Positions 18,234 to 36,008 of a DNA stretch of 40,548 nucleotides are shown in pieces. The translations under genes were made by a program, and so were the position numbers. The DNA is taken from the IMG/VR virus record IMGVR_UViG_3300050162_000081, positions 1-40,548 of that record. One strand, written 5' to 3'. The notes beneath the pieces are model-generated. The model ran no database searches. It had not been told where the DNA came from and saw only the letters and a list, made by a program, of their open reading frames with translations. The DNA is from a virus (lineage: Duplodnaviria > Caudoviricetes). Numbering within the stretch: position 1 is the first letter of the stretch; every line of letters begins with the position of its first letter.

Positions 18234-18234
18234 C

Positions 18235-19299: not shown

Positions 19300-19343
19300 A
19301 TGGGTAGGAGGCATATGCCTCCTACCCATACTCTTTTATTTTT
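19300..19343 (+). terminator. Rho-independent terminator
   Basis: ATGGGTAGGAGGC-ATAT-GCCTCCTACCCAT, followed by a T-rich tract. Confidence 0.75.
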
Positions 19344-19410
19344 GTAAACTTTGTTAATATCACAAATACAACTATCAGATGATCAGTGTAAATCAGATGC
19401 ATCGAATCAC

Positions 19411-19418
19411 TATATTAC
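19411..19418 (+). promoter_or_regulatory. phiKZ-type early promoter motif TATATTAC
   Basis: Exact match before RBS AAGGAG. Confidence 0.65.
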
Positions 19419-19441
19419 TGATATGAAATAAGGAGATTTGT

Positions 19442-19774: not shown

Positions 19775-20427
19775 GTAATATCGTAAGTTATGATAAATAT
19801 CATACTCTAAAAAATTATGGGTACTCCATTGATGCCAATGGCGAATGTCCTTATTGGTTGACCAAAGAATATACCCCCAATATCGTATACGATAGCGAAA
19901 ATGAACATGGATTCGTTGTCGGGTGGCCTAACGACTGGTCTCTTGTGCGAGTGATCAGACTACCCTACGATCACACTTGGTATACGTATGATTTGTTCGT
20001 GGCTAAGTATTGTGAGATTCTTATCTACTGGCCTGGATTTGGTGTAGTATCAGATGACTGGGATGGCGAAGAAGTCCTACTCCGAAATGGTTCATACGCG
20101 ACAGCATCTCGCTGGGATCATCTAGGTAAGCCAGATGATGTAATCGGATTACGCTTCAAACCAGAAGTGGAGCTCACTCCGATGAATGAGACCTCAACTA
20201 TCGCTGAGACGTTTAAATTGACCTCTGAGGATATGAGTAAACTTAACGATATCATTAAAAGTGAATCCTCGGATGATTTCAAATATGCGATCGCTGAGCT
20301 ATTGGTACATAGGCGAATCCTGGTAAATACTTTTAAGAGGATCCTCAGACTAAATGATGAGTATGATGTACGACTCATAAAAAGTATGGCTTATTTCGAT
20401 CTACATATAGTAGGAGAATCTTTATGA
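19771..20427 (+). CDS. Hypothetical protein
   Basis: 218 aa, overlapping start. Confidence 0.65.
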   Translation: MSNIVSYDKYHTLKNYGYSIDANGECPYWLTKEYTPNIVYDSENEHGFVVGWPNDWSLVRVIRLPYDHTWYTYDLFVAKYCEILIYWPGFGVVSDDWDGEEVLLRNGSYATASRWDHLGKPDDVIGLRFKPEVELTPMNETSTIAETFKLTSEDMSKLNDIIKSESSDDFKYAIAELLVHRRILVNTFKRILRLNDEYDVRLIKSMAYFDLHIVGESL

Positions 20428-21089
20428 GTAATATCAAACACATAGTCCTTATGAAACATAGATCTACTCCATTGGATCGCAAATTGCGAGATATACTGGA
20501 TAATCGAGATAAAGTACTAACAGATTTTATTAAGACATATGAGTCATCTAGTGTACATGTACCTAAACGATTATCTTATAACTTTAGTTCTACTAACACT
20601 GGTCCGACTAGTGTGGGTATTACTGACATCAGAGTGAGTTATACCCTACCGATTCTCGAGTATCCTATTCTTCAGGATGAGTTGGAGATATATGATTTCT
20701 TCTTTGATGTCTACATAAAGTATAGAAATCTACTACTATCTAAGATAGCTGATGAGATAGAACATCGAAGAGTCTCTGTTTGGCGACGCCCTGATGACGT
20801 AGTGAACACGATAATTATGTTACTACATCACATGGTATTTCGTATGTCAGAAGGTACGCTCACTAGATCAGAGCTAAGTGAGCTACATCTACTATACCGA
20901 GATCATCTGGGATCAGCGCCCCCGCCAGCTTATGCATACAACGCATTAATGATTCTGTGGTCACACCTACGGGATAATAACCCACTGTGGCTGAGTACAA
21001 TAGTGAATTCGTCAGTAGTGGGTAGTTGGTATAATTATGTATACAATGAGAAAGGGTATCGTAATACTCCTAGACCATCACAAATATAG
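20424..21089 (+). CDS. Hypothetical protein
   Basis: 221 aa, RBS AGGAG, ATGA overlap. Confidence 0.65.
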   Translation: MSNIKHIVLMKHRSTPLDRKLRDILDNRDKVLTDFIKTYESSSVHVPKRLSYNFSSTNTGPTSVGITDIRVSYTLPILEYPILQDELEIYDFFFDVYIKYRNLLLSKIADEIEHRRVSVWRRPDDVVNTIIMLLHHMVFRMSEGTLTRSELSELHLLYRDHLGSAPPPAYAYNALMILWSHLRDNNPLWLSTIVNSSVVGSWYNYVYNEKGYRNTPRPSQI

Positions 21090-21120
21090 TACGATATTAG
21101 GAAAGATAGGATATGAACTT

Positions 21121-21441
21121 ATGACAACCGTTAATCAAAATGACTCTTCTGAACACTGCAAGATCACGAATCAATCTTCGTATGGTAGAATGGGTGCGGA
21201 TGTATTTCTTCAGTTACCCAAAACACTACCTTACAATGATTTTCCAATTGATCGAGAACTGGCCGAGCTGTCTCTTACTTATCTAGAAAATATAGATGAT
21301 ACAGAATCTGGAGAATGTATCATAATTGATAGTTTGACTGAATATCAAGAATATATGCAGAGTGGTTTGAATTATAGCGGTAGAGGGTTGCTACAACAAA
21401 CTGGAGCCGAACGACATCTACCGAGATTAATAAAATTATAG
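21121..21441 (+). CDS. Hypothetical protein
   Basis: RBS AGGA before ATG 21121. Confidence 0.5.
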   Translation: MTTVNQNDSSEHCKITNQSSYGRMGADVFLQLPKTLPYNDFPIDRELAELSLTYLENIDDTESGECIIIDSLTEYQEYMQSGLNYSGRGLLQQTGAERHLPRLIKL

Positions 21442-21493
21442 CTACTCGCAGTAAAAATAGAGCTAAAAATAAAAGAGCTCGAAAGGCTAGGCG

Positions 21494-22207
21494 ATGCAAG
21501 TCTTAAACACTCATCATGTCGGCGGGGTAGATCATCTACCTCCAAATAGTGTGTATGTGGGTAGACCCAGCCCTTATGGGAATGAATACAGTTCTAAGAG
21601 TGGTAAGTACTCTAAAGAAGAATCTGTGGCTATGCACCGCATATCTCTCTATAAACGACTGATCGAAGATAAGTCTTATTTTGACACATTGAAAAATGGA
21701 CTACTGGGTAAAGATCTAGCATGTTGGTGCAAACATCCCAAGAGATTCTTTCCATGCCATGCCGATAACTACGTCCATCTATTCTTACCTGAGTTTATCA
21801 CTAGGCCGTATAATAAGAGTGTCCTCTACTATTTAGTAGAAGATCTTAAACACACTCTTAAAATACTCAGTACCAAACTAATGGTAGAAGTATCCGATGA
21901 CTATTGGGTGAGACTCTATGCTAGCTCACAGGACATCAAAATCGATCTAGGTGAAGTACTACGTGAATACAAAGAGGAAAAGATAGAAGCTTATCCATTA
22001 TGTATCATGCTAGCATTTATCCTAGTGGATTTAGAAGCCTGTGAGAATGAAACTGATCCTGATATATTAGACTATCGCTTACTACATGTAGAATGGAATG
22101 TATATCGTAATACTACCGAGACAGATGATAGAGCCAATGAGCCTATCCATCCAGCCGTAACTATTAAGAAGCCTAAGAAATTACCTAAAGTATCGGATGA
22201 ATCATGA
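21494..22207 (+). CDS. DUF4326-domain protein with C-terminal extension
   Basis: VYVGRPSPYGN…GKDLACWC…PCHAD. Confidence 0.8.
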   Translation: MQVLNTHHVGGVDHLPPNSVYVGRPSPYGNEYSSKSGKYSKEESVAMHRISLYKRLIEDKSYFDTLKNGLLGKDLACWCKHPKRFFPCHADNYVHLFLPEFITRPYNKSVLYYLVEDLKHTLKILSTKLMVEVSDDYWVRLYASSQDIKIDLGEVLREYKEEKIEAYPLCIMLAFILVDLEACENETDPDILDYRLLHVEWNVYRNTTETDDRANEPIHPAVTIKKPKKLPKVSDES

Positions 22208-22230
22208 GAGGTGCGTGAGCACCTCTCATG
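22203..22230 (+). terminator. Stem-loop with GTGA loop
   Basis: CATGAGAGGTGC-GTGA-GCACCTCTCATG. Confidence 0.6.
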
Positions 22231-22322
22231 TCTAAAAAGATCATCTTTTAATTACTAATCATGTTAGGGAGCTTTGTATCTGACACTATCAAAATGGAGT
22301 GTCTAAACAGGAGTAATGTGAC

Positions 22323-22658
22323 ATGATTAATACCACTCGTTTGTTTTTAGATTGCCAGAAAGTCATAGATGGCTATACCGCCACAGGTGATACTGAGTCG
22401 GTAGAGATATTCACCAGAATCAGAGATCAGATAGCTCAAGTCACACATGAAAACATCAGACTGAAAGCTATCCATAACTCTCCTGTGTATCCAGAAATGT
22501 TACTGTATAAGACTAGATCAGAAAAATATGAAAAAAGAATAACTGCTTTAGAAAATATCACTAACCAATTCATCAGCACATTCGCCGATCACACTGAGGA
22601 TCCTGAGATCAATGACCTTATTACTTTGGCCAGTGAATTGGTAGGACTACCTAATTAG
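22323..22658 (+). CDS. Hypothetical protein
   Basis: RBS AGGAG. Confidence 0.6.
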   Translation: MINTTRLFLDCQKVIDGYTATGDTESVEIFTRIRDQIAQVTHENIRLKAIHNSPVYPEMLLYKTRSEKYEKRITALENITNQFISTFADHTEDPEINDLITLASELVGLPN

Positions 22659-22667
22659 GAGACAATT

Positions 22668-22832
22668 ATGTTTCGTATTCTTTATAGAGTGGTACTCTTT
22701 ACTCTAATTTGTCTTGTAGGGGCCATCACAGCCTGTTCGATGGGTTATGTGATAGTGGGTATAGTACTGTGGATGTTTGTAGCTGCAGGCGTCTTAGACA
22801 CTATCTCTACCTATATGAAGAACCAGGATTAA
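22668..22832 (+). CDS. Small two-TM membrane protein (54 aa, not in track)
   Basis: RBS AGGAG; MFRILYRVVLFTLICLVG…. Confidence 0.6.
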   Translation: MFRILYRVVLFTLICLVGAITACSMGYVIVGIVLWMFVAAGVLDTISTYMKNQD

Positions 22833-22872
22833 TAACCCCCAGCTAGATACTAGAACAAAAGGTACCAAGTAG

Positions 22873-23388
22873 ATGATACATGACGAAATACGGAACTTAA
22901 CAAATACAATCACGACTACATTGGGTAAATCCACTCCAGAAGAATTCAAAGCGCATATAACCGCTAAGAACAATCTACATGCATTACTCATGAATAATGC
23001 TTCTAAGATAGCTGATCTATTCGAAAAAGAAGATACTGTCGCAAAGCCAGTAAATACCTGGCGCGAAGCTGTGATAGGCGAGCTATGCGTATGGAATTGT
23101 CTACCGGACAATGTAGTGGATGATCCACAGGCTGCATTACAGTTACTACTGAAATTAGAGCGTGAGATGGCTTTAGATCCTAAAGTATCTGAGGATGCTG
23201 ATACGCTACTCAATAGAGGGCACACAGAAGGTGCTCAGGCCATGAAGATTAAAGCTGGAGTAGTAATCCTCCAGACAGATAGTAAGCCTCTTAATAACCG
23301 AGGCGCCGCCGCTATGGACATATCCAGAATAAATGTCGCTGAAGTAGTTGACAAGCTAAAGGGACAGGTGTTCTCATATGAAATATAA
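22873..23388 (+). CDS. Hypothetical protein
   Basis: 171 aa, RBS AAGGT. Confidence 0.65.
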   Translation: MIHDEIRNLTNTITTTLGKSTPEEFKAHITAKNNLHALLMNNASKIADLFEKEDTVAKPVNTWREAVIGELCVWNCLPDNVVDDPQAALQLLLKLEREMALDPKVSEDADTLLNRGHTEGAQAMKIKAGVVILQTDSKPLNNRGAAAMDISRINVAEVVDKLKGQVFSYEI

Positions 23389-23977
23389 AATATATCATTC
23401 AGTATTAGTCGGCTATCTAGTATTCAGCATAGCCTTACTTTGCGGCATTCCTGTCTGGAATCATGGGTTTGCATTAAGTAATCCAGATGCCAGTGATTTA
23501 GGGGCTATGGTAACTATACTTAACTACATCACATTGGATATGATCGAATCGTATCTTTCTTCTAAAGAACCGAAAAAAGAAGTCATCCCCACAGAACAGA
23601 CTAGATCGACCGACTATGTGACTTTACTAAATAGACTAGAAAACAGTGATGATGAAAAAATCAACACATTACTCACTGATTGGTTTTATTTCATAGCAGG
23701 TTATCCCAATCGGGGATCCTCCATATTACCAGATGGTAGGTCGTGGTCTCAGGTCAATGGTTGTTTCACTAAGCTCATCACTGAGGGGAGCTATGTTAGT
23801 GCTGTATTACTCATGCTACCTGACGAGTATGAAGTAAAGTTAGAGGTGAATCCAGACGATCCTTCTGATAGAAAATTTTATCTCAAAAACAAGATTAATG
23901 GTGAGATAATCAATAGTGATATCGAATCAGGATCACTGTCACTTGCAGAATGTATCTTAAAGATAAAGGGGGCTTAG
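23378..23977 (+). CDS. Membrane-anchored hypothetical protein
   Basis: N-terminal TM; RBS AGGTG. Confidence 0.6.
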   Translation: MKYKIYHSVLVGYLVFSIALLCGIPVWNHGFALSNPDASDLGAMVTILNYITLDMIESYLSSKEPKKEVIPTEQTRSTDYVTLLNRLENSDDEKINTLLTDWFYFIAGYPNRGSSILPDGRSWSQVNGCFTKLITEGSYVSAVLLMLPDEYEVKLEVNPDDPSDRKFYLKNKINGEIINSDIESGSLSLAECILKIKGA

Positions 23978-23978
23978 T

Positions 23979-24518
23979 ATGACTAAAAATACAACCGAAG
24001 AAGAAGCTCCAGAATATGCGATTGGATTACTCACTGAGGAAGCTGGTGAGATTAATCAGATGGTCGGCAAATGGATTAGGTTTGGTCCTGATCACGCTCG
24101 CGCAAAAGACGGACTCACTTCTCGCAAAGGATTGTCTCTAGAAGTTGGCGATATCTTAGCTGCTATCGAGTATGGTCTATCTGCTGGGATACTGGATAAG
24201 GACATCGTCGCTACTCAGCATGTAGCTAAGCTTACTAAGCTACTGGATGAGAATTCCAAGGATGACCAAGGTAATAGACTAGCTCCACCAGTCAATCTAC
24301 TGAGATACCAACCAACTCACGATACTGAAACACTCATGTATCTGAGTAAGTGGGTAGAACGTGGTTTATTCGATTCTCGGGTGACTCCTACAGAAGCAAT
24401 GTCTGTGATCGCTTACTATCCCAGTATGCCTTGGAAGACAGGGGTTTGGGATGTAAATCACAAACCATATGCCGAAGAGTTCTATACGAAGTTTCCGAAA
24501 GCTAGACCTAAGGATTAG
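23979..24518 (+). CDS. MazG-like NTP pyrophosphohydrolase-domain protein
   Basis: LTEEAGE…KWIRFG…LEVGDILA. Confidence 0.7.
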   Translation: MTKNTTEEEAPEYAIGLLTEEAGEINQMVGKWIRFGPDHARAKDGLTSRKGLSLEVGDILAAIEYGLSAGILDKDIVATQHVAKLTKLLDENSKDDQGNRLAPPVNLLRYQPTHDTETLMYLSKWVERGLFDSRVTPTEAMSVIAYYPSMPWKTGVWDVNHKPYAEEFYTKFPKARPKD

Positions 24519-24522
24519 TATT

Positions 24523-24675
24523 ATGATCATTGAACTGTTAGGTTTACTACTCGTACTACTGATACTACCTGTAGTGGTAGTATGTATAGTGATCTTCTAT
24601 CTCGTGTTGGTGGGGGTATACATTATACTAACCCCTGTGTTCTGGATCGTGGATAGGATCTATTGTAATGATTGA
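24523..24675 (+). CDS. Small hydrophobic membrane protein
   Basis: RBS AAGGA; almost fully hydrophobic. Confidence 0.55.
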   Translation: MIIELLGLLLVLLILPVVVVCIVIFYLVLVGVYIILTPVFWIVDRIYCND

Positions 24676-25261
24676 TTATTTGGACATAAGTGTTGACTTA
24701 GAGACGTGGGGTAAGCGAGCCGGATTTGATCTGCGATCTATAGGCGCTGCTCCCTTCGATATAAATGGTATTGTGGACTATAGCGCAGACGATTACTTCT
24801 ATACCGCGGTAGACAATCCGATCGTCAATGAAGAAACTCAAGAACGTATGTGGGCGCTCAAGCGTGATCCAGAAACTGTACAGTGGTGGTCAGAACAATC
24901 ACAAGAAGCTAGAGCTGCATTTATTAATCCAGTGAGATTAGATGTAGGTCTACAACTATTTGTGGATTGGTTAGATAAACTAGTTAAAATTCATAATAGA
25001 CCTATACGAATGTGGGCGCACGGAGCCGCTTTTGACCCACCTATCCTCGCGGAAGCCTTTGAGGTAGTCTTAGGATATACTCCATGGTTCTACAGAGCCC
25101 CTAGAGACACTAGGACCGCATTCGACTTTGCAGACATCGATGATCATACTGGACTACTCAAACGATTTAATGCTGGTGTACAACATCATGCGCTTTATGA
25201 TGCAATTACGCAAGCTAGAGCCATTACCTATTCGTATAGTATCCGAAAGAGAGTCATATGA
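24668..25261 (+). CDS. DEDDh 3'-5' exonuclease (Rv2179c / exonuclease VIII-like)
   Basis: VDLET, WAHGAAFD, RDTRT, HHALYDA. Confidence 0.85.
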   Translation: MIDYLDISVDLETWGKRAGFDLRSIGAAPFDINGIVDYSADDYFYTAVDNPIVNEETQERMWALKRDPETVQWWSEQSQEARAAFINPVRLDVGLQLFVDWLDKLVKIHNRPIRMWAHGAAFDPPILAEAFEVVLGYTPWFYRAPRDTRTAFDFADIDDHTGLLKRFNAGVQHHALYDAITQARAITYSYSIRKRVI

Positions 25262-25638
25262 CAGATAAACCAACATGTAATATTTTAGGTAGTACTATTA
25301 ATCCTGGCATGAGTCCTGAGCTAGTGGAGCTACTAGAAAAAGCTAGACACATTAAGATTACTCCCACTATGCGTTTTGATCAGAAAGTATCATTCGTATC
25401 ATCTGGACTATCTGACTATTCGCCAGAGAAAAAAGCTGAATTACGAAAACGCTTAGTAGAAGAAGCCTCAGTGCCTCAAGAATTACTGGATGAAGCAGTA
25501 GCTAAGTATAAACTATCTCTCATAAACCGACTCGAGAAAATTAAAGATAGTTATGATAGTACCCCAGGGATGTCTTCTACATATGCATCAACTACTATCT
25601 CCAAAGTAATTGAGTCGATAAAAGATGACTCGCTTTAA
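25258..25638 (+). CDS. Hypothetical protein
   Basis: ATGA overlap. Confidence 0.6.
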   Translation: MTDKPTCNILGSTINPGMSPELVELLEKARHIKITPTMRFDQKVSFVSSGLSDYSPEKKAELRKRLVEEASVPQELLDEAVAKYKLSLINRLEKIKDSYDSTPGMSSTYASTTISKVIESIKDDSL

Positions 25639-25897
25639 CACTGGTCCTATACTACCATGGCAAGAATATCCAGGACAGATACCATCGAGTATGAAACTAC
25701 TTACTAGACTATATAGATCCGGTCAGTACGGATTACCTGTGGGTGCTGGTTCTAGACATCTAGGTGGTATCAAATTAGATGTAGCACATAAGCTAGTCCG
25801 TAATGGACTAGCTTATGTCTCTAGAAACAATAAAGGCGAGATAGTTAGAATCTATCCCTGTCAGTATTCATTTAATTTTTATAATTTAAGGCACTGA
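25625..25897 (+). CDS. Hypothetical protein
   Basis: Overlapping ORF in the operon. Confidence 0.5.
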   Translation: MTRFNTGPILPWQEYPGQIPSSMKLLTRLYRSGQYGLPVGAGSRHLGGIKLDVAHKLVRNGLAYVSRNNKGEIVRIYPCQYSFNFYNLRH

Positions 25898-25952
25898 CAA
25901 TCTTGGTCGATCAGATACGATCTATGATACCAATTTCGGAAATTTAAATCGC

Positions 25953-25960
25953 TATATTAC
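25953..25960 (+). promoter_or_regulatory. phiKZ-type early promoter motif TATATTAC
   Basis: Exact match, intergenic. Confidence 0.65.
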
Positions 25961-26008
25961 TTTCATGAAGAATGATCTTCAATTTATAGGTATACAGGAT
26001 ATTAGATC

Positions 26009-26128
26009 ATGCTTATCAAAGTTAAGAATCCCGAAGTCTACAAAGCTCGAATCGACCATTATCTCAGTATGGGATTTGAGCCATGCATGGCTAGACTAAA
26101 AGCTTTTAAGGATAGCCAGAGCTCATAG
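26009..26128 (+). CDS. Small protein (39 aa, not in track)
   Basis: RBS AGGA; MLIKVKNPEVYKARIDHY…. Confidence 0.5.
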   Translation: MLIKVKNPEVYKARIDHYLSMGFEPCMARLKAFKDSQSS

Positions 26129-26138
26129 GAGTTTGATT

Positions 26139-26306
26139 ATGTCTGAGACATCTCCGCCCATCAAATCCGCAACGGAACATGAAAAATGCGACTGCGGTAA
26201 TAACCTCCGCACTCGATGGGAGAAGTTTAGTACTACGTGCTCGAAGTGTTCGCCTATCGACAGGCCTCCTTCGAAAGACAAATACAGTAATCTATTTGAC
26301 TACTGA
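26139..26306 (+). CDS. Small zinc-ribbon-like protein (55 aa, not in track)
   Basis: RBS TAGGAG; CDCG…CSKC. Confidence 0.55.
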   Translation: MSETSPPIKSATEHEKCDCGNNLRTRWEKFSTTCSKCSPIDRPPSKDKYSNLFDY

Positions 26307-26330
26307 TATATCATTAATGAAGAGATTGTC

Positions 26331-27071
26331 ATGACTAGATCAGTTCCTACAAAATACTTCCGGGAAAAGAAAAGTCCTCGTGGTGAATTCCCATTCCAAG
26401 ACTACCACTGCTATGGAGGTTTTGGTAGTGATGGGGTATACCGTTACCAACTCGTCCATAAGGACACTTATGAAAAGCTCTACCTCAGTCGAGCTCGATA
26501 CAACATGTGTGTCCATCTCAAACGTATCCTCACTAAGGATGAGCGAGTAGAGAAGATCGATGGCCCTAGTGATGAACTGGATAATCTAAAACTCATCACA
26601 CCTCAGATCAGAGCAGAGATACAGAAGGCTAACTTAACTAAACACTGTGTCATCTGCGATAGTGAATTCGTAGCGATCCGCGATCGTACTAAGACATGTT
26701 CACTAGAGTGTAAGAACGCGCTCAAGCGTCAATCGATGACAGGAACTACTGCGGCTACACTAGCGGCCAAATGCGTCGAGTGCGGTAGTCGATTTATAGC
26801 TCAGTCGCCTAGAGCTATCACATGTAGTGATCGGTGTCGTTATACTAGAAAGAGGAAACTTGGCGGCCATATGGCTAGCGATGGTAGTTATATCTCCAAA
26901 CCTAGTACCAATCGTGTGCGTAAACCTAAAGTCATAAAACCAAAAGAGACGTTTCGTAATAAATGTGAAATTTGTGAACATTATTTCACCGCTAAAACCC
27001 CTGAGCAGGACGTATGCTTCAGCCATCATTGTCAAACTGTATTAGTAGAACTAGGGAACTTGGATATATGA
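26331..27071 (+). CDS. Zinc-finger repeat protein with degenerate HNH-like segment
   Basis: Three CxxC…F…C..(.)C repeats; RARYNMCVHLKRILTKDERVEKIDG…DELDNL. Confidence 0.65.
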   Translation: MTRSVPTKYFREKKSPRGEFPFQDYHCYGGFGSDGVYRYQLVHKDTYEKLYLSRARYNMCVHLKRILTKDERVEKIDGPSDELDNLKLITPQIRAEIQKANLTKHCVICDSEFVAIRDRTKTCSLECKNALKRQSMTGTTAATLAAKCVECGSRFIAQSPRAITCSDRCRYTRKRKLGGHMASDGSYISKPSTNRVRKPKVIKPKETFRNKCEICEHYFTAKTPEQDVCFSHHCQTVLVELGNLDI

Positions 27072-27370
27072 CATATGAGTCGGAGAGTATGGATTATCTG
27101 GAGATCCTCAGGATAGATTTAGCTGCTTCTAGGATAAGAGCTAATCGAGGAGATCTGGATAACAACATCCCGATGGGTGTGCAGATCACCGAGGACGACA
27201 TCAAAGCAGCTATACTCGAGTTCTACGGCAATGAACCTGAGTATGCGCCATGGATGATCAATGTACTACTCAGGATATATAAGACATCCAAAGAAGAACA
27301 TGATTCAGTCTCACAGATGATGACTGAAGTTTTCACACCATTATTTCCTAATTTAGGGAGGTTTATATGA
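27068..27370 (+). CDS. Hypothetical protein
   Basis: ATGA overlap. Confidence 0.6.
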   Translation: MTYESESMDYLEILRIDLAASRIRANRGDLDNNIPMGVQITEDDIKAAILEFYGNEPEYAPWMINVLLRIYKTSKEEHDSVSQMMTEVFTPLFPNLGRFI

Positions 27371-27816
27371 CGGATGTCAAAACTAACAGAATGATATATC
27401 GTGGATATGACGTATGGTCGGATTCGTCAAATACTGTGCGCGTAAAGCGTGTCGAAGTGGGTGGTAACAACCACTATGATGTCTCCGAATATAATAGTTC
27501 TGGAGGCTTAATTAATCGCTGGGGTCACTGGTCCAATCCGAAACCAGCGCTCCATCTCGCAGATATATTAGTAGAACTGACCGCACTGCGAAGGGATCAT
27601 GAATACCTAAAGCAGATATGCGGTATTGTAGATAATCCTACGGGAATGGTCGGTAAAGCTCTTTCGGAAAATACTCTAGTACTGACCCCATCCGGGCCCA
27701 AACGACTGGTTGATCTTAAACCTGGAGATACAGTGTTGGAACGACCGGGATCGCCCTCTCTCACTACTGCCGAGTTTTCGGAGAAGTCTGATGACTTCTT
27801 TGTTCGACCTATCTAA
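27367..27816 (+). CDS. Hypothetical protein ending in an intein N-terminal fragment
   Basis: RBS GGAGG; C-terminal GK-ALSENTLVLTPSGPKRLVDLKPGDTV. Confidence 0.7.
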   Translation: MTDVKTNRMIYRGYDVWSDSSNTVRVKRVEVGGNNHYDVSEYNSSGGLINRWGHWSNPKPALHLADILVELTALRRDHEYLKQICGIVDNPTGMVGKALSENTLVLTPSGPKRLVDLKPGDTVLERPGSPSLTTAEFSEKSDDFFVRPI

Positions 27817-27842
27817 TAACTAATCTCATCCCAGTGAATCGA

Positions 27843-27850
27843 TATATTAT
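27843..27850 (+). promoter_or_regulatory. Early promoter-like variant TATATTAT
   Basis: Intergenic, before RBS AAAGGT. Confidence 0.45.
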
Positions 27851-27879
27851 TCACTGATCAAACTAAGAAAGGTAGAAAT

Positions 27880-27969
27880 ATGTTATTCTGGATATTCATC
27901 ACGTGGGTGCTCGTATCGATCCCCGCCGGTATCATTGTGGGTAAAACTATCAAACATTTAAATAATTGA
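27880..27969 (+). CDS. 29-aa single-TM peptide (not in track)
   Basis: RBS AAAGGT; MLFWIFITWVLVSIPAGIIVGK…. Confidence 0.55.
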   Translation: MLFWIFITWVLVSIPAGIIVGKTIKHLNN

Positions 27970-27979
27970 TAGGACCCCC

Positions 27980-28087
27980 GTGTACGACATTTTGTACTAT
28001 ATCGTGATCGTACTACTAGTACTATTCTCGATTCTCAGTGTAACGTTCTGCATCGCTCTTTATAAAATTTGGAAATGGATGAGCTAG
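27980..28087 (+). CDS. 35-aa single-TM peptide (not in track)
   Basis: RBS AGGA, GTG start; hydrophobic. Confidence 0.5.
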   Translation: MYDILYYIVIVLLVLFSILSVTFCIALYKIWKWMS

Positions 28088-28140
28088 CGAATTACCGCTA
28101 GCTCATATCCAAATATACACTCTTTTGTAAATAGGTATTT

Positions 28141-29337
28141 ATGAAAATAATTCTCAATCGAAATCATCATTTCACCCACAATTCTCGCTACCGAGTGAGT
28201 AAATTCATTCATGATCACATGCGTGCGCTTGCATTAGCTATCGTACTCTTGTTGAGCATGATCTTTCTTTTCGAAGGGGATCATAAAGCTAAGGGTGCTG
28301 TGGGATTCCATCTCAATCCTACACAGAAACATGAGCAGGAGCCTGTGAATCCTAAGCTCTTGGGAAATTATACCATGCTGGTAGACATGTCGTCTATCAG
28401 GGGTAGCACCAAACATCCCTCGAAGAAGATTGGTCATGCCTATGCTCATCTGGCTGGTATCAAACCAGTGGGACTGCGTCCATCGTTTGTCCCACAGAGT
28501 CATCAGATCAACTGGGCAGTGACTCTGGCCGAGGCATGGGATCGCAAGCTGGCCCGACCCAATGTTAGTCCTGCGGCGCGTAAATGGGCTGGTAAGATCG
28601 TCGCTAAGTACAGTGATAGTAAACGCGATACGAAATCAGCTGAGCAATATATTGCTCAGGTAGACAATATCGTCAAGCAGACTCATAATGAAATTAATTA
28701 TGGAGCGCTATGTACTACATTTAAGATCACTGAGTGTACTGCACTCTATACCACCATGGGACGGATTCGTGGTCGCAGTATCGCGGCCTATGGACTCAGC
28801 GAGAATTTTCCAAGTGATGATGGACAATTCAACTATCGCATGTTCGATATGATTCTCCAAAATGCGGGAGAAAATTATCTTCATTCCATCCCATCACAGG
28901 GTGATGATCTCTTGTCAACTGGACTGTTTCAATTCACAAGTCTAGCCATCAGGCGCGATAATTCTGGTAAATTGGGTGGGGCCAATATCGTTGATAACTT
29001 CGCTGGTAGGCGTCTACCTGGATCGGTTGTCAGACTGAGTACTCGGCAGGCTCACAAAGCAGCATTCGAATTGGCGACTTACAACATCGCTATGACCATG
29101 CGTGGACTCAATCACGTGGAAGCTGATAGACTGGCTCACAAATGCCCTGTGAGTGGTCTTACCGAAGTAATCGCAATCGGCCATCATCAACCGGCTCCCA
29201 CATGGGTGGCGGCTCGTAGGTGGGTTAAGAGTGGATGTAATAAGCCTCTCCAAAGCTTCTTGAATCCACATCTCAAAATTTACGCTCACAAGTCCGCAAG
29301 TAACTACACCGCTCTGGTTAACAACACATCTATCTGA
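28141..29337 (+). CDS. Membrane-anchored protein, possible lysozyme/transglycosylase-like fold
   Basis: TM near the N-terminus; STGLFQFT resembles the GL(M/F)Q motif. Function uncertain. Confidence 0.55.
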   Translation: MKIILNRNHHFTHNSRYRVSKFIHDHMRALALAIVLLLSMIFLFEGDHKAKGAVGFHLNPTQKHEQEPVNPKLLGNYTMLVDMSSIRGSTKHPSKKIGHAYAHLAGIKPVGLRPSFVPQSHQINWAVTLAEAWDRKLARPNVSPAARKWAGKIVAKYSDSKRDTKSAEQYIAQVDNIVKQTHNEINYGALCTTFKITECTALYTTMGRIRGRSIAAYGLSENFPSDDGQFNYRMFDMILQNAGENYLHSIPSQGDDLLSTGLFQFTSLAIRRDNSGKLGGANIVDNFAGRRLPGSVVRLSTRQAHKAAFELATYNIAMTMRGLNHVEADRLAHKCPVSGLTEVIAIGHHQPAPTWVAARRWVKSGCNKPLQSFLNPHLKIYAHKSASNYTALVNNTSI

Positions 29338-29348
29338 AGGTTCAGATT

Positions 29349-29966
29349 ATGAAAAACAAAACTCTCAAATTCATCCTCATTGTGATCCCAGCTCTTATCG
29401 TGGGTATCTTTGTGGGGTATGAATCTTTCAAAGTAGTCTCAGGAGTGGCCAAGATGATCACTCCTACTTTCGACACCAAATCATCCGACCCCATCGCCAA
29501 TGCGGTACTATCTATCTCGCACAAACAGAAAATAGTCGTCACTGACGTCAACATCCGAGCTGAGACTAAGTCTCAGCTCGCCTCCGATGTATGGGATGCT
29601 GCTGTAACGAGCTATACTACTGCCCGCGTTCAGATCTGGTTCGACCTTAGTAAGTTTAACCAATCGATGATCATCCGTGATGGTAAACACATTACCATCA
29701 GCATCCCTCATTCAGCGATCGAGAGTGAAGTAATCGTCACCGAAGAAAAACACACTCCCAATGGGAGCTGGTTGTTCTCGATGCGTCCTTCTGAAGCTAC
29801 CAAACTCGAAGATGTAAATCACACTCAGCTGACTAAGCAGCTCAATGATGACAAATCTAATTACATCACAGATGGGCATGTGCTGGTGGAATCTCGTGTC
29901 AAGGATATATTCGAAACTATCCTCAATGATCCGAGCTACACAGTAGTCGTAAACCACCAAGATTAA
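29349..29966 (+). CDS. DUF4230-like membrane-anchored protein
   Basis: N-terminal TM; ARVQIWFDLSK…ITISIPHSAI. Confidence 0.6.
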   Translation: MKNKTLKFILIVIPALIVGIFVGYESFKVVSGVAKMITPTFDTKSSDPIANAVLSISHKQKIVVTDVNIRAETKSQLASDVWDAAVTSYTTARVQIWFDLSKFNQSMIIRDGKHITISIPHSAIESEVIVTEEKHTPNGSWLFSMRPSEATKLEDVNHTQLTKQLNDDKSNYITDGHVLVESRVKDIFETILNDPSYTVVVNHQD

Positions 29967-29983
29967 TTTCCCTCATATGAAGC

Positions 29984-30009
29984 ATGGTAGGGGATCACTC
30001 CCCTACCAT
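29984..30009. terminator. Stem-loop (TCAC loop, GTGA on the minus strand)
   Basis: ATGGTAGGGGA-TCAC-TCCCCTACCAT. Confidence 0.5.
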
Positions 30010-30026
30010 CGATACGGAGATCACAT

Positions 30027-30224
30027 ATGACGCATCAAGACATTCTGATACTAACCCTTGCAGTTCTCGAATTCATCACTGGTTTTATGACATGTAAGCT
30101 CATGTACCGAAAGCGTGATAAACAAAAGAACATGACTACTCGGGTGAAACATTATTCGCCAGAGCAGGAACGACTCCACAATGAGCGCATGTTGATGCGC
30201 GCTAATGACCTAACACACTACTAA
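30027..30224 (+). CDS. Small single-TM protein
   Basis: RBS GGAG. Confidence 0.6.
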   Translation: MTHQDILILTLAVLEFITGFMTCKLMYRKRDKQKNMTTRVKHYSPEQERLHNERMLMRANDLTHY

Positions 30225-30236
30225 GGATATCTGATC

Positions 30237-30422
30237 ATGGCAAAACGGGTCAGAATCGTTAAAGGTCAACGGTGGCAATCTCGAACTGAGGATAAATCAG
30301 TTACTGTGGATGACGTCATGAGTAGCCGAGTCCATTTCCGAAAGGACTCTACTATCAACACAATAGAGCAACTCAATATTTCTATATTCGTATCTATGTA
30401 CGAATACTTACCTCACACATAA
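30237..30422 (+). CDS. Hypothetical protein
   Basis: RBS AAGGA. Confidence 0.6.
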   Translation: MAKRVRIVKGQRWQSRTEDKSVTVDDVMSSRVHFRKDSTINTIEQLNISIFVSMYEYLPHT

Positions 30423-30433
30423 ATAGGTGATTT

Positions 30434-30757
30434 ATGCAAATCAGTTTCAGGAATATTCTCTTGGTGTCTTGCGCCGCTATTTCCGTAGTGACGATCGGAC
30501 CACTAGTCACTGTGTTTGTGATGGGTAGTATCATCGCGGTCTACGTGATGGTGCCCAGCCGCACTGTGAAATGGTGTTGTGCTGGACTAGCAGCATCTAT
30601 CGTGGGACTACCAGCTCTGATGCTTTCTGGGGTCATCTGGGGAACTCTTAAAGCGCTGGAACGTCCTAAGGCTGTACCAGCGCCAGCTCCCACTCCGACT
30701 CATCGAGCTCGTGGTAACGGGGTGATCATCGAGGCCGAATGGGTAGAAATCAGGTAA
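30434..30757 (+). CDS. Membrane protein
   Basis: RBS AGGTG; hydrophobic segments. Confidence 0.6.
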   Translation: MQISFRNILLVSCAAISVVTIGPLVTVFVMGSIIAVYVMVPSRTVKWCCAGLAASIVGLPALMLSGVIWGTLKALERPKAVPAPAPTPTHRARGNGVIIEAEWVEIR

Positions 30758-30760
30758 CGA

Positions 30761-30810
30761 GATGGGGGCATGTGCCCCCATCCCTTATCTACTTTATTTT
30801 TTCTTTTTTT
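30761..30810 (+). terminator. Rho-independent terminator
   Basis: GATGGGGGC-ATGT-GCCCCCATC with a downstream T tract. Confidence 0.65.
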
Positions 30811-30862
30811 ACATAAAACCATAATACGATTATCATTCCTGATAGGAAGAAAGGTAAGTAAT

Positions 30863-31456
30863 GTGACTGAGCAGCCTACTGAAACAAAGACTATCGTCGA
30901 TTCCAAACTATTCGAGTTAGCTAGTACTACTCGACTACTAGAACATCTCACTCCCAACTTTGACACACTACTTAAGACGGAAGTGTTCTTGGATAACGAA
31001 TATCCTAGGACTACTGAAGATAGCGATGATACTCGTATCTTCATGGTCTATACTTCAGCTAAAGGTAATCCTATCTTCACGCTCATGCGAGATAAGACGA
31101 GACTAGCTTCTACCTTCGATGTCGATAGCCAGCTAGCTGCTTATCAGGAGGCTGTCTTTGATCCAGAGACCCTACCTACCGCTGACCCAGTAGAACTCAT
31201 CAATGGTACGCTCATAGCGTCTCTGGAGTATCTCTCACTGGTAGTCTTGGGTATCGAAGAAGAAGGTGGTGACAATCTCACCATCGCTAAACATCTCATC
31301 CCAGCCATCACATCGATTGTGTTTAATGATCCACTTGATGTCTTTATGAATGTGAGTGAAGTGGTTAATCAGGACACTGGTGAATCATATCCTCATCTCA
31401 CTGCTGTATGGGCCGTTAAATCCAGGCCAGTCACTGAAGTGTCAGATGAATCCTGA
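30863..31456 (+). CDS. Acidic hypothetical protein
   Basis: RBS AAAGGT before GTG 30863; the track start runs through the terminator. Confidence 0.65.
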   Translation: MTEQPTETKTIVDSKLFELASTTRLLEHLTPNFDTLLKTEVFLDNEYPRTTEDSDDTRIFMVYTSAKGNPIFTLMRDKTRLASTFDVDSQLAAYQEAVFDPETLPTADPVELINGTLIASLEYLSLVVLGIEEEGGDNLTIAKHLIPAITSIVFNDPLDVFMNVSEVVNQDTGESYPHLTAVWAVKSRPVTEVSDES

Positions 31457-31790
31457 AGATGCTAAAGTAGGTCTAGTAGTATCGGCTATAGCAGTAGGAG
31501 CATATGTTCTAGGATGGTTAATTAGTAGTGTCTGTAAAACCGTTATTACAAAGACTATTCATAATAACAATGTCGCTGATCTTACTGAACAAGGTTATGA
31601 GATATCAAAAGGCGAATGTCAGGGCAAAGAATACTTTGACGTGGGGATATTAAAACCAGTCAATGCGCACAGAAGAGTGGGATATCTCAATCCAGACGGG
31701 AAACAATTGGATAGTCCTTTTTACTTTTCCAATATAGAAGATGCTCGACGAGCTGTTTGGTGCGCTAGAAAACAAAAACTTAAAACGTGA
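31446..31790 (+). CDS. Membrane-anchored hypothetical protein
   Basis: ATG 31446 overlaps the upstream gene; TM segment. Confidence 0.6.
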   Translation: MNPEDAKVGLVVSAIAVGAYVLGWLISSVCKTVITKTIHNNNVADLTEQGYEISKGECQGKEYFDVGILKPVNAHRRVGYLNPDGKQLDSPFYFSNIEDARRAVWCARKQKLKT

Positions 31791-31798
31791 GTGATAAG

Positions 31799-31822
31799 GA
31801 TAGGGGGCGTATGCCCCCTATC
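31799..31822. terminator. Stem-loop between convergent genes
   Basis: GATAGGGGGC-GTAT-GCCCCCTATC. Confidence 0.65.
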
Positions 31823-31832
31823 ACATCTGTGA

Positions 31833-32636
31833 TTATAATGCGTGATAAATGAGTTTACTAATCGTCCTAGGATCATATCGTAAAGCGCCAGTCAGTCTGC
31901 GCAGACAGTCGTCATACTGCTCCGCCTTTTGAGTATAGTCGTTTACGATATCCTTGATGACGCCGATCTCTAGTCCAGCTACGACTTCAGTCTCATCGAT
32001 AGGTACCCGTAACTTAGTAGCGATATAGCGCTGTGTCGCACATAGACATAATCTACGTAGTGCTAGAATACCAGACTGATTCATATTTAGGAATTCAGAA
32101 TCATACTCTAACATTACGCTCACAGCGACAGCGCTGACTATCTGTCTAGGATAGAACCTAATGATGTTTGTGCCCTCTAGTGTAACTTGAGGGGTGAGAT
32201 AGGTCTGACTCATCGAATGCGTATTAAGCATCTGAGATAGCATCCCAGTGGCGTTATTACCGAATGATCCATCGAAGCCAGTACCTGGTGAGTTTATACC
32301 TACAGATGGTACTATTCCGATCACGGATGAGATGTTTCTACCTTCTCTAGCTTCAGGAGGTACCTTGTAGAATGATCCCTGGATACCAGTACCTACTAGG
32401 TCATATTGATTCTCGTCGTCCAGCTGCATTTCCCAGTTAGAGTTGATAAAGATATCGCGTCGTTTACCACCCACTAGGTTAGTATCTAAGAGGATGGGTC
32501 CTTCGATGATCTCTGAGATAATACGTTGTTCTACAGTGGTATTGTATTTATTTGGTTGGAAGCTGAGCTCCAAAATTTCTCTAGGTACGCTAGATTTTAT
32601 AAATGAGATAATGTAAGACATAGTCGATTGAGGCAT
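31833..32636 (-). CDS. Conserved phiKZ-like protein, probable virion structural protein
   Basis: VPREILELSF…EQRIISEIIEGPILLDTNLVGG resembles a phiKZ-like core family as I recall it. Only convincing minus-strand gene. Confidence 0.65.
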   Translation of the reverse strand: MPQSTMSYIISFIKSSVPREILELSFQPNKYNTTVEQRIISEIIEGPILLDTNLVGGKRRDIFINSNWEMQLDDENQYDLVGTGIQGSFYKVPPEAREGRNISSVIGIVPSVGINSPGTGFDGSFGNNATGMLSQMLNTHSMSQTYLTPQVTLEGTNIIRFYPRQIVSAVAVSVMLEYDSEFLNMNQSGILALRRLCLCATQRYIATKLRVPIDETEVVAGLEIGVIKDIVNDYTQKAEQYDDCLRRLTGALRYDPRTISKLIYHAL

Positions 32637-32715
32637 GTTAAAAGCCTTTCTAAATACAGAGTTCAATTGATCATACGATTGGATAGGGGTGCTTCGATCA
32701 TTAAAATCGAAACCC

Positions 32716-32723
32716 TATATTAC
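32716..32723 (+). promoter_or_regulatory. phiKZ-type early promoter motif TATATTAC
   Basis: Exact match in the divergent intergenic region. Confidence 0.65.
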
Positions 32724-32754
32724 TAGTTCGAATTAACGATATGAGGATTTCAAC

Positions 32755-33333
32755 ATGGTAGATATGGTTGAAACTAAATTTAAATTACAAAACACAATCA
32801 ATCCTAATAAGTTTATTGATTTATCTGGACTAGTAACCGGACTTAGTATGGACTATCAGCGCTCCACCAGTGAGGCTTCGCTTAATATAAGTATATACGC
32901 TAAGATACCAGATGAGTTGATTAATGTATTCAGGCATATCAATCGTGATCCGAATCCATGGGTTATTATTTCTGAAGACTTCGAACTTGGTCCAAATTGT
33001 TTTGTGCGGAAAATAGGTCCAGATTCACTGTTTGTAAAACCACTCAGTATGAATTTAATGAGTACTTTATATAGACAATGTGCTTCTTACGATACCGTGT
33101 CATTTGAGATAGCCTCATGGGATGGTATCAATCAGTCTTACAGACTACTACATGATCACATCCGAACACTGGATGGAAGTTACGACGATGATGTTCGTAT
33201 AACCTCTCTTACAGATGGTAAGAGTGCAGAAATTCATCCTGATGGATCGGTGATTATTTTCACCAAAGATAAAAGTAGTTCATACCGCACCAATGTGAAT
33301 GAAATTATCGAACTTTTAGCTAAGGGGATATGA
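32755..33333 (+). CDS. Hypothetical protein
   Basis: RBS GAGGA; 192 aa. Confidence 0.65.
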   Translation: MVDMVETKFKLQNTINPNKFIDLSGLVTGLSMDYQRSTSEASLNISIYAKIPDELINVFRHINRDPNPWVIISEDFELGPNCFVRKIGPDSLFVKPLSMNLMSTLYRQCASYDTVSFEIASWDGINQSYRLLHDHIRTLDGSYDDDVRITSLTDGKSAEIHPDGSVIIFTKDKSSSYRTNVNEIIELLAKGI

Positions 33334-33334
33334 G

Positions 33335-33433
33335 TTGCCGTTAATAGAATTAGTGACGCATGACATGTTCGTCCTCGAGAATTTGGTAGACTATTACGTA
33401 AATCCCGTAATAGTTGACATAGTTTATTTATGA
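33335..33433 (+). pseudogene. Truncated 5' copy (32 aa) of the macrodomain gene at 34289
   Basis: TTG start after AAGGGGA; (M)PLIELVTHDMFVLENLVDYYVNPV-IVDIVYL*; 14/25 identical, ungapped, to MPLFEIITSDMFQCSDVVDLYINPV. Its TGA overlaps the HNH ATG. Confidence 0.8.
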
Positions 33434-34302
33434 CCGAAGAACAACGTTGTCTAACATGTAGTAGTGAGAAGATAAGATATTCATCAGGTAGATTACGATG
33501 TCGAATATGTGAGCGCAGGTACGATCGCTTATCATACGTAAGAAACCGAGAACAGCGGCTTATAAAACGTAAAAAAGAATACGACAAAGCCGATAAATCT
33601 AGACTACTTGAGTTAAAAAGAAATTGGTACAAAAGACAGCATTACCTAAGAAATACCTGGGTGGGTATAAATAATAGGTGTTATAACCCATCTAACGAAA
33701 GTTATAATTTTTATGGTGGACGAGGTATTGCCGTACACGAACCATGGATAATGAAACGAGGTAAGACTCACGATATAAGAGACCAGAATATAGTAATACT
33801 TGATAGGTTTGTTTCGTGGGTAGAAGAGAATTTAGGAGATAGACCGGCAGCATGCTCTTTGGATCGTATAAACAACAGTGGTAATTATGAACCTGGAAAT
33901 TTACGTTGGGCAACTGCTGAGCAGCAGGCCAATAACACTAGGAGAAATGTGAAATATAAGAAATCTATATCGGAATACCAATTAATTGATACTCCGACTG
34001 GAACATGTGCTATATTGAGTTTAGCAGAAAAAACAGGTATATTTACAAAAGTCTTAACTTCTAGAGCCGCTAGATTTTCAGATTACAATTATCTTGTAAA
34101 CGATCCAAAAATACTCTCACGAAAACATCTCTATAAAAACAATCTATACTCCACAGATGAAATCTGTTATATAAATGGATGTTCATATGACGTGGTAAGA
34201 AGCAGATTTCGATACGGATGGACCGTTGAAGAAGTAATCGAAACTAATCTAATGCCGAGAGGCAATAATACTAATTGGAGAAATACCAATGCCTCTATTT
34301 GA
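33430..34302 (+). CDS. HNH homing endonuclease inserted in the macrodomain gene
   Basis: N-terminal CxxC…CxxC; YGGRGI; SLDRINNSGNYEPGNLRWAT. Confidence 0.88.
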   Translation: MTEEQRCLTCSSEKIRYSSGRLRCRICERRYDRLSYVRNREQRLIKRKKEYDKADKSRLLELKRNWYKRQHYLRNTWVGINNRCYNPSNESYNFYGGRGIAVHEPWIMKRGKTHDIRDQNIVILDRFVSWVEENLGDRPAACSLDRINNSGNYEPGNLRWATAEQQANNTRRNVKYKKSISEYQLIDTPTGTCAILSLAEKTGIFTKVLTSRAARFSDYNYLVNDPKILSRKHLYKNNLYSTDEICYINGCSYDVVRSRFRYGWTVEEVIETNLMPRGNNTNWRNTNASI

Positions 34303-35263
34303 GATAATAACAAGTGATATGTTTCAGTGCTCAGATGTCGTAGATTTATATATTAACCCCGTAAACACGATGTCTACCCCAGGGTCAGTGGGCCTCGCTA
34401 CAGTATTCCGAGATAAAGTACCTAGTTACATTCCACAATACAAAGAGGCCTGTCGTACTAAAGAATTACGGATGGGTACTCTACAGGTCATCGAAGATAC
34501 CAATCAGTCTTGGGGTATGGTGAATCTACCTGTTAAAGAACACTATGGTAATCACTCCGAACCTAGTGATATCAGTAGGAGTTTAGAAGCACTTAGAAAT
34601 CTACTCAAAGAAACCACATATCGATATAGTACTATCTGTCTACCCATGTTGACAGTAGGTATGGGACCAAAAGATTATGAGATAGTTTACCCTCCCATGA
34701 TAGATCATCTCAGTGACTTAGATGCGACGGTGTTTCTATCTATGCACCCTGACAAGACTGAATCTAGACCTAAATATCTGACTATTATCGGTCCCGAAGA
34801 TTATGGGTTAAATAAGATCGAAACTGATAGTATCGATTGGGTAATCGATAAAGCTATGGAGTCTTGGGGGACTAGTCTATCAGACTACACTGGAATCATC
34901 TCAGGAGGTCATACCGGAGTCGATCGGTATATCGGCGGTAATGATTACCTAAAAGATATCGAAGCCACGTACGTCTATCGTAAGACGAATAAACCATGCT
35001 TAGTAATTAAACCTAATGAAATCAGAAATGGCTCTAGAGCTAATGTCACACATGGTGAGTTACTCTGTGAAATCGCTAGCGACATCATTATGTTTAAACC
35101 GAACAATCACAATAACAATCGCATGACCGCAATGCAGCTGTATATCGAAGAGCAAAAAGAAAAGAGAGAGGCGCTGGGACTACCTCCTAGACGAGTAGCT
35201 ATCTTCGGTGATAAATCCACCAGTCTGTATAACACTAATATCAAGATATCTGTAAGGGAATAA
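34289..35263 (+). CDS. Macrodomain (DarG/Poa1p-like) fused to a SLOG/YspA-like domain
   Basis: DMF…INPVNT…GLATVF…NLPVKEHY…LPMLTVGMG; C-terminal IISGGHTGVD…EIASDIIMF. Confidence 0.7.
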   Translation: MPLFEIITSDMFQCSDVVDLYINPVNTMSTPGSVGLATVFRDKVPSYIPQYKEACRTKELRMGTLQVIEDTNQSWGMVNLPVKEHYGNHSEPSDISRSLEALRNLLKETTYRYSTICLPMLTVGMGPKDYEIVYPPMIDHLSDLDATVFLSMHPDKTESRPKYLTIIGPEDYGLNKIETDSIDWVIDKAMESWGTSLSDYTGIISGGHTGVDRYIGGNDYLKDIEATYVYRKTNKPCLVIKPNEIRNGSRANVTHGELLCEIASDIIMFKPNNHNNNRMTAMQLYIEEQKEKREALGLPPRRVAIFGDKSTSLYNTNIKISVRE

Positions 35264-35739
35264 TGACTATGTCGATTCCTAATTATAGCTTAGTGATTAT
35301 TAAACACTTATCGATAGGTAGAGGACATGGACCATTTATCTTATCTGATATACTGCGTAAGGCTCCTGTGTCCCTCAGGATGTTTCGTCACTGGAAGATA
35401 TGTGATACATCCTTAAAAGCTTTGTGTACAAATACTAGAGCATGTGATACTTACTTGAGCTACAATCTAGAATCAGATAGTGGTATGAGTCTTAGACCCA
35501 GTTGGATATGTTTGTTTACACACTTAGATAGGTCATCCGATCCACATCCTATTTTGGATGATGTATTGGGTAGATATGACGGTTATCACCCTCGATCCGC
35601 TTTTGGGATCAGGCACAACTACTGTCCTACTACCAACACTGTACACAACTGCGATACAGTGGTACATCTCACTGATCCACTCAGAAATGAATATGAAGCT
35701 AGTATTTTATTCAAAGACTTTAAGGAGGCGGATATATGA
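35263..35739 (+). CDS. Hypothetical protein
   Basis: TAATG overlap. Confidence 0.6.
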   Translation: MTMSIPNYSLVIIKHLSIGRGHGPFILSDILRKAPVSLRMFRHWKICDTSLKALCTNTRACDTYLSYNLESDSGMSLRPSWICLFTHLDRSSDPHPILDDVLGRYDGYHPRSAFGIRHNYCPTTNTVHNCDTVVHLTDPLRNEYEASILFKDFKEADI

Positions 35740-36008
35740 CTACTCGATTATGCATAGATTGCAAATACTCAGATGCATCGCTGAAATGCAATAGACCTTT
35801 GACTGACCACATATCTCCAGTGACTGGGTCCCTAGATCAGCTAGTGAATACATGGTGTGTCAAAGAGCGTAGTAGTACTCATACATTATTCAGAACCAGA
35901 GAACGTTGTGGGCCAGATGGAATCTTCTTTGAAAAAGCAGATCATCGAATCGTATCTGAGTCCAAGCCATCGATAATTACTCATATACTAAAAAGTCTAG
36001 TATCATGA
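35736..36008 (+). CDS. Cys-rich protein (CxxC…C…C…CGPDG..FE)
   Basis: RBS AAGGAGG; paralogue of the 19442 ORF. Confidence 0.65.
   Translation: MTTRLCIDCKYSDASLKCNRPLTDHISPVTGSLDQLVNTWCVKERSSTHTLFRTRERCGPDGIFFEKADHRIVSESKPSIITHILKSLVS

Follow-up and report, generated by a model that had tools for sequence, protein, structure and literature searches.

A putative homing cassette joining an HNH endonuclease to a foreign gene start in a macrodomain gene of a phiKZ-related jumbo phage

Layout of the macrodomain locus

The DNA analysed, referred to here as the window, is the whole of the 40,548-bp record G000. Its source is a jumbo phage related to phiKZ, as indicated by the DUF7484 gene adjoining the locus under study. 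This gene matched 119 phage records with identities of about 25%, and the 40 matches listed of these 119 were all phages of 200–323 kb. Near-identical DNA was present in 24 listed sequencing runs, 23 of which are leaf-litter metagenomes. The phage clade is rare in IMG/VR, where two contigs were found by means of DUF7484. An HNH profile search of these two contigs, run without a positive control, gave no candidate. A scan for the clade-specific C-terminal HNH domain found nothing, a viral-contig scan with the single macrodomain protein returned no relative, and a scan with the target of a second insertion (case 1, described below) produced one 10-aa match. A related phage of 308 kb encodes, at L001:1681–2124, a protein that resembles a Ros/MucR regulator in its motif, a hint that the hosts of the clade may be alphaproteobacteria.

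All features of the locus lie on the plus strand. A 32-aa ORF with a TTG start (33335–33433), further called the stub, begins one base past the stop of a 192-aa gene (32755–33333), and its Shine-Dalgarno sequence AAGGGG (33322–33327) is located within the last codons of that gene. Codons 1–25 of the stub (33335–33410) are likely the native 5' end of a macrodomain gene, its last seven codons being derived from the insert. The gene of an HNH-superfamily endonuclease of 290 aa follows (HNH 33430, 33430–34302), the ATG of which overlaps the TGA of the stub in an ATGA (33430–33433). The intact macrodomain gene of 324 aa (34289–35263) has both its ATG and its ribosome binding site (RBS) GGAGA (34277–34281, duplex −6.4) inside the HNH coding region, which stops at 34302. 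Upstream of the 192-aa gene, a 34-bp intergenic stretch (32694–32727) was also found on other contigs of runs X1, X9, X10, X13 and X16, followed there by unrelated DNA, and is possibly a repeated phage promoter. At the locus itself, a sigma-70 scan gave background level only and a terminator scan found none.

The first 25 residues of the stub could be aligned without gaps to the start of the 34289 protein, with 14 identities. This local score of 79 was reached by none of 20,000 codon shuffles (shuffle maximum 50), and among the 65 plus-strand ORFs of the window an upstream copy of the N-terminus was found for only two, both behind HNH genes (scores 167 and 79, next best 36). In the DNA, 44 of 76 positions are identical, with 13, 20 and 10 of 25 conserved at codon positions 1, 2 and 3 respectively, a pattern typical of two coding sequences that diverged long ago and not of a gene and its decayed copy. 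Both copies close with CCCGTAA (33404–33410 and 34358–34364), a 7-nt junction sequence covering the P-V-N codons of the NPVN motif, and the similarity ends there. The insertion point corresponds to codon 25/26 of the native frame of the target, at NPV/N, and the asparagine just past the break (N26) is invariant in 15 of 15 proteins.

From the duplication geometry and from the empty allele of case 1, the segment 33411–34364 is likely a mobile cassette. With a length of 954 bp, it would comprise a 19-nt spacer, the HNH gene, the new RBS and the replacement 5' end, which consists of codons 1–25 plus one base (34289–34364) and ends in the right CCCGTAA copy. Its borders may slide up to 7 nt to the left. 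The intact gene is atypical of the family in codons 25–40 as well (0.41 and 0.48, versus 0.70 and 0.73), so that the true right border perhaps lies further in. To the left of the junction, 7 of 24 nt differ in the rebuilt site, and the stub frame meets 26 stops across the insert. A 10-bp hairpin was predicted across the junction of stub and insert (33389–33415; z −2.8, in a window picked post hoc). The anti-SD duplex of the stub (−8.2 kcal/mol) was the strongest of ten starts tested, with a median of −4.2 for the ORFs of the window; the HNH start, with a value of +0.7, is without a Shine-Dalgarno sequence.

The initial annotation had reported the uncalled TTG ORF one nucleotide past the upstream stop with its 14/25 match, the end of the match at NPV-N with the shared CCCGTAA, the overlap of the stub TGA with the HNH ATG, and the RBS and start of the intact gene within the last HNH codons; all of these were recovered in the sequence, and the codon shuffles bear out the significance of the peptide match. 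It had also proposed a break in a conserved motif, a replacement 5' end and a diverged rebuilt site, which agree with the invariant N26, with the two diverged coding starts ahead of an intact host gene and with the 7 of 24 changed nucleotides.

The target is a conserved gene, as seen from 15 homologues and from nine loci; Pfam Macro was matched by all 15 aligned proteins. Profile matches were obtained to 5m3i (E 2e-20), 5m31, 7omu and OARD1, with the N-x-V-N loop and the PxK motif aligned; the first three are presumably DarG proteins. The N-terminal domain is of the TARG1/DarG type and the product is a probable ADP-ribose-removing enzyme. Unlike TARG1/OARD1 and the DarG-type macrodomains, it has some 170 further residues forming a C-terminal domain for which Pfam gave no match. 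The DUF7484 neighbour is present in five of the nine orthologous loci. A tblastn search for HNH was negative for eight of the nine loci, including all five with DUF7484, and positive for L009 alone. There (L009:3–1272), a related HNH gene ends 16 nt upstream of the macrodomain orthologue; the contig end falls inside this HNH gene and hides its upstream side. The start of this orthologue shares F4 and I7 with the replacement start of the window (7/12, its best match among 23 rows), although few homologues have a more distant body.

The best PHROG for HNH 33430 was phrog_3377 (E 4e-31), with matches to PHROG HNH families ranging from E 4e-31 to 3e-4, and 661 phage records were matched, many of them annotated as HNH. 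No match was found in Pfam, nor any sequence match in the PDB. The protein consists of N-terminal CxxC pairs, a YGGRGI / DRI.N..NY core and C-terminal helical modules. All family-invariant core residues are kept; in place of the first His in the HNH motif stands an Arg, which is itself invariant in 16 of 16 family members. Its structure model (pLDDT 84) had I-HmuI as top Foldseek match (E 0.2), which is no clear fold match, and a second look at the model returned no nuclease. By its PHROG and phage-record matches, the protein is classified as an HNH-superfamily nuclease domain combined with DNA-binding modules. Its closest paralogue in the window, HNH 8705 (27% identity), has no flank duplication. 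This gene (8705–9706) and another at 26331–27071 are two further HNH genes of the window, one of them directly after nrdB, and neither shows a flank duplication. In addition, the terminase large subunit appears to contain two short intein-like inserts, and a LAGLIDADG domain inside the barrel of NrdA is likely an intein (window positions 165–2900 and 4434–7310).

A twin cassette and the native start

A second insertion of this kind, case 1, is present at 18235–19079, also on the plus strand. Its stub (18235–18387) contains, in codons 1–49 (to 18381), the native start of a 118-aa gene. The 698-bp insert (18382–19079) carries an HNH gene (18384–18890) and replacement codons 1–49 (18933–19079), and is absent from one allele in two runs. 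Among contigs aligned on 17100–35800, the empty-allele joint 18381→19080 was found in X10 (depth 11.8) and X12 (depth 7.4), where the filled allele was present as well. The short sides of this joint are 30 and 29 letters, weak if taken alone. Protein P0138, encoded on two JGI contigs, consists of residues 1–49 of the stub and residues 50–118 of the body, letter-exact. In the phage population, the 698-bp unit is thus either present or absent, with exact borders between codons. The resident start is the stub, since the empty allele, by both joint and P0138, carries the stub and not the replacement. In the rebuilt site of case 1, 13 of 24 nt differ. The HNH proteins of the two sites are 35% identical over 99 aa and have the core alone in common, which points to two independent invasions and confirms the earlier claim that different HNH genes are involved. 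The same layout had been proposed for both sites; this holds for the stub, the stop/start overlap and the replacement start, but the new RBS and start of case 1 lie 42 nt past the HNH stop and not inside the HNH gene.

Other variation was recorded in the same contigs. One filled contig, from X1, has an E4A change in the stranded case-1 stub. Two more joints in X1, 22499–22687 (187 bp skipped) and 25961–26128 (166 bp skipped), suggest replaced intergenic stretches. A degenerate 18-nt tandem repeat within the DUF6745 gene (17410–17620) varies among strains.

At the macrodomain site, no joint 33410/34365 of an empty allele was seen in eight of the 24 listed runs, which had been chosen by the filled stretch and four of which were patchy. 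Runs with a partial word share had thin coverage and contained parts of the HNH gene. The P0001 (macrodomain) cluster, with one member on 12 contigs, held no empty-allele variant. The cassette 33411–34364 appears to have reached fixation in the population sampled and is perhaps ageing: four protein variants of HNH 33430 were found on 11 contigs versus one of the macrodomain protein on 12 contigs, an excess that would fit relaxed selection after fixation.

Which of the two macrodomain starts is native was assessed by comparison with the homologues. Of 14 of these, 10 are closer to the stub and one to the replacement, with three ties. P0004, whose body is the most similar (59%), shares 18 of 25 residues with the stub and 14 of 25 with the replacement. 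The TTG codon is no sign of decay, as two of the nine orthologous loci (L004 and L006) also start with TTG and one (L007) with GTG. The stub is most likely the native macrodomain start by these comparisons, a statistical assignment here, since no relative falls between 58% and 100% identity. Closeness to the family is by itself an unreliable guide to nativeness: of 57 more distant homologues of the case-1 gene, 41 were nearer to the replacement than to the resident stub, while the nearest homologue, P0139, was nearer to the stub (36 versus 30).

Occurrence of the layout among HNH loci

A set of 249 loci of the HNH family was taken (80 and 79 viral, 80 from bacterial genomes and ten from named phages), a sample not drawn from jumbo phages. 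With three window controls added and 18 loci with open or short flanks and five duplicates removed, the flanks of 226 non-window loci were screened for duplications, with one HNH gene scored in each. The screen used per-locus shuffles with a threshold of z≥5 followed by inspection, and misses duplications shorter than about 12 codons. In an earlier version of the screen, low-complexity frames from GC-rich loci had dominated the output.

The threshold was passed by eight of the 226 loci: two with the 5' layout, three with a mirror-image 3' layout and three that were rejected on inspection. The first 5' case is the single-stranded DNA-binding protein (SSB) gene of the cultured Lactobacillus phage Lb (NC_047983; L099:730–1866), in which the stop of an unannotated 18-aa stub abuts the HNH start, and the new RBS and ATG sit inside the HNH end. 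No empty allele of this SSB gene was found among phage records, and one SSB relative is nearly equally close to stub and replacement (14 versus 13 of 18). In the second (L128:1345–2300), a terminase stub and an HNH gene are followed by a replacement start that contains a TAG codon in frame, within a GGRGSTKS-type motif, this copy being either broken or recoded. In the mirror 3' cases (L225:954–2225, L067:2109–2923 and L094:12–1650), a second copy of the C-terminus of the upstream gene lies at the HNH end or beyond it. Further likely 3' cases are L023:2280–2905, a second HNH gene in its locus, and L103:155–2030 (z 2.8); in L067 and L023 the HNH ORF reads into the second C-terminus copy. The rejected loci were L204, with two small paralogues off the junctions, L055, which is of low complexity, and L246, with 14 aa off the junctions.

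In a start-anchored test of 203 loci, only the two window cases and L099 scored above the null maximum. The layout is recurrent across unrelated phages, yet confined to a small minority (about 1% for the 5' and 1–2% for the 3' form), and is not the general habit of the HNH family. The search across the family for upstream peptides matching the downstream N-terminus, which the initial annotation had advised for jumbo phages, was borne out in so far as such cases exist elsewhere (L099 and L128), but they are rare (2/226) in a sample from other sources. Its view of a general gene-repairing strategy of this HNH family goes further than is supported by the counts of 2/226 and 3/226 for the 5' and 3' layouts, and by HNH 8705, which lacks the duplication.

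A homing model and its relation to known systems

It is quite probable that the 954-bp combination of HNH gene and foreign start at NPV/N is a homing element that keeps its host gene whole without splicing. Observed directly at this locus are the arrangement itself, a downstream gene that is intact, two starts with a coding-type divergence, the strong RBS of the stub and an HNH gene without one; a precise empty allele, composed of stub plus body, was observed for the twin cassette only. The cassette would spread by cutting cassette-free alleles and then being copied into them. It may have originated as a free-standing HNH gene that lay just upstream of its target in the genome of a distant phage and was joined, in a single event, to a recipient allele that had been cut, with short homology at the right side and a non-homologous join at the left. 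In later rounds, two homology arms would be provided, one by the native start left stranded and one by the body of the gene. The cassette would thereby occupy its own cut site, and the recoded replacement start would render the rebuilt site resistant to recutting. Translation would begin from the old RBS, run through the stub and start anew at the ATGA overlap, a re-initiation like that put forward for T4 mobE (PMC2988022), by which the stub would act as the translation leader of the nuclease.

The locus could also be read as a one-off recombination scar, for which an intergenic free-standing HNH gene arrived with a donor macrodomain allele and the old start was left by accident, without a role in spread. 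The rarity of the layout in the HNH family (two of 226 loci) would fit such an event, as would the lack of an empty allele at the macrodomain site in the runs examined and in the P0001 cluster, and the L009 arrangement of HNH gene and orthologue, cut by the contig end. A scar is nonetheless unlikely: the layout occurs twice in 40 kb, both times at a conserved motif and with a stop/start overlap, the twin is precisely present in some alleles and absent from others, and the stub is still open with its RBS kept. The reverse polarity, with the downstream gene as the native one and the stub as a leader captured by the HNH element for HNH expression only, is very improbable. The case-1 empty allele has the stub and not the replacement, and the macrodomain stub is the more family-like start, in operon position one nucleotide past the upstream stop; these points stand against an HNH gene that, without an RBS, relies on the stub by geometry, and against the lack of a close empty allele to fix the direction at the macrodomain site.

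An even smaller chance is given to a self-splicing intron or ribosomal bypass that would link the stub to the gene body. In group I introns, the 5' exon ends in U and the intron ends in G, and no cut within CCCGTAA yields both ends. Moreover, no Rfam intron model was matched at E≤1 (three weak, unrelated matches were returned), and there is no room for an intron core, as the gap between stub and HNH gene is just 19 nt and the 62 nt past the HNH stop belong to a coding sequence. A complete start with its RBS is already present at the downstream gene, and 26 stops occur in the stub frame across the insert. Set against this are the hairpin spanning the left junction and the frequent location of jumbo-phage HNH genes in group I introns, as stated in the available part of PMC12908238. 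The probability of an assembly chimera of two related phages, conceivable for a metagenome source with strain variation, is negligible, as contigs from three runs not flagged as source (X9, X10 and X12) cross both junctions of the 33411–34364 insert with 0–1 differences; the X1 contig covers 22692–35800.

Terminus replacement gives rise to chimeric genes, the two ends of which have different histories. Uncalled stubs hide the cassettes, and both start-site annotation and gene trees can be misled. As both an empty and a filled allele of the twin occur in nature, the model and the activity of the widespread Arg-for-His 'DRI.N' HNH family are open to direct test. The chances are about even for the broader proposal that phages carry a distinct, splicing-free class of homing element, which invades conserved coding motifs near either gene end and swaps in a foreign terminus, the stranded start serving as homology arm and as a leader metering the nuclease. 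Under this proposal, such cassettes would keep shuffling gene termini among distant phages, the start of a probable ADP-ribose-removing enzyme would have been swapped up to its conserved NPVN loop, and the twin cassette would be in mid-spread, with natural sensitive and resistant alleles.

In phage reviews, introns, inteins and intergenic gaps are given as the safe homes of homing nucleases; terminus replacement would be a fourth, proven so far at 3' ends in yeast and in fungal mitochondria. A full-text search, with subscription papers and supplements outside its reach, returned no phage description of a terminus-replacing layout, and the available parts of PMC10448857, PMC12908238, PMC12724721 and PMC2248197 contain none. 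Among phage systems, the 'intronless homing' of the T4 seg and mob genes is similar, according to the accessible text of PMC2988022, in its intron-free HNH genes, stop/start overlap and host signals inside the nuclease gene; for mobE, the overlap is said there to suggest translational coupling. The seg and mob genes are described as intergenic and as cutting at a distance of hundreds to thousands of bp, whereas the cassette lies inside a coding sequence, part of which is duplicated. It shares with the T4 mob type a nuclease domain free of intron and intein, but not the intergenic insertion distant from the target. HNH genes within phage coding sequences and without known intron or intein are also described, in the portions available, for actinophage methylases (ShiLan, PMC11855218) and for a nucleotide reductase gene split by a homing endonuclease gene (cited in PMC10448857). 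The ShiLan insert is open in the host frame, while the present cassette closes that frame with its 26 stops and restores the gene by the replacement start; the split reductase works as two peptides, while the target of the cassette is restored whole.

The closest parallels are found in fungi. In the WHO elements at FBA1 of Torulaspora and Lachancea yeasts, a homing nuclease lies beside a duplicated gene fragment, with the mechanism shown at the 3' end (PMC7282813, as far as available). As proposed for the phage, no RNA or protein splicing is involved, the host gene end is swapped for a resistant version and the leftover fragment forms the second homology arm. The WHO protein is intein-derived with a zinc finger, and acts at the 3' end of a eukaryotic gene with independent transcription; the cassette contains an HNH gene, acts at the 5' end in a phage, must bring a new RBS and start, and is apparently translated from the old start. 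Cleavage has been demonstrated for WHO and is predicted for the cassette. In the fungal mitochondrial mORFs (PMC3630166 and PMC7487136, in the parts available), an endonuclease ORF with a foreign terminus keeps the target whole and displaces the native terminus, as is proposed for the cassette. These are of the LAGLIDADG or GIY-YIG type, mitochondrial and nearly always at the C-terminus, N-terminal replacement being covered in those parts by one clause that gives no mechanism. Diverged terminus copies flanking a nuclease and an intact host gene are common to the cassette and to the WHO and mORF elements, but nuclease type and 3' position differ: the phage cassette works like these elements without being a member of their class.
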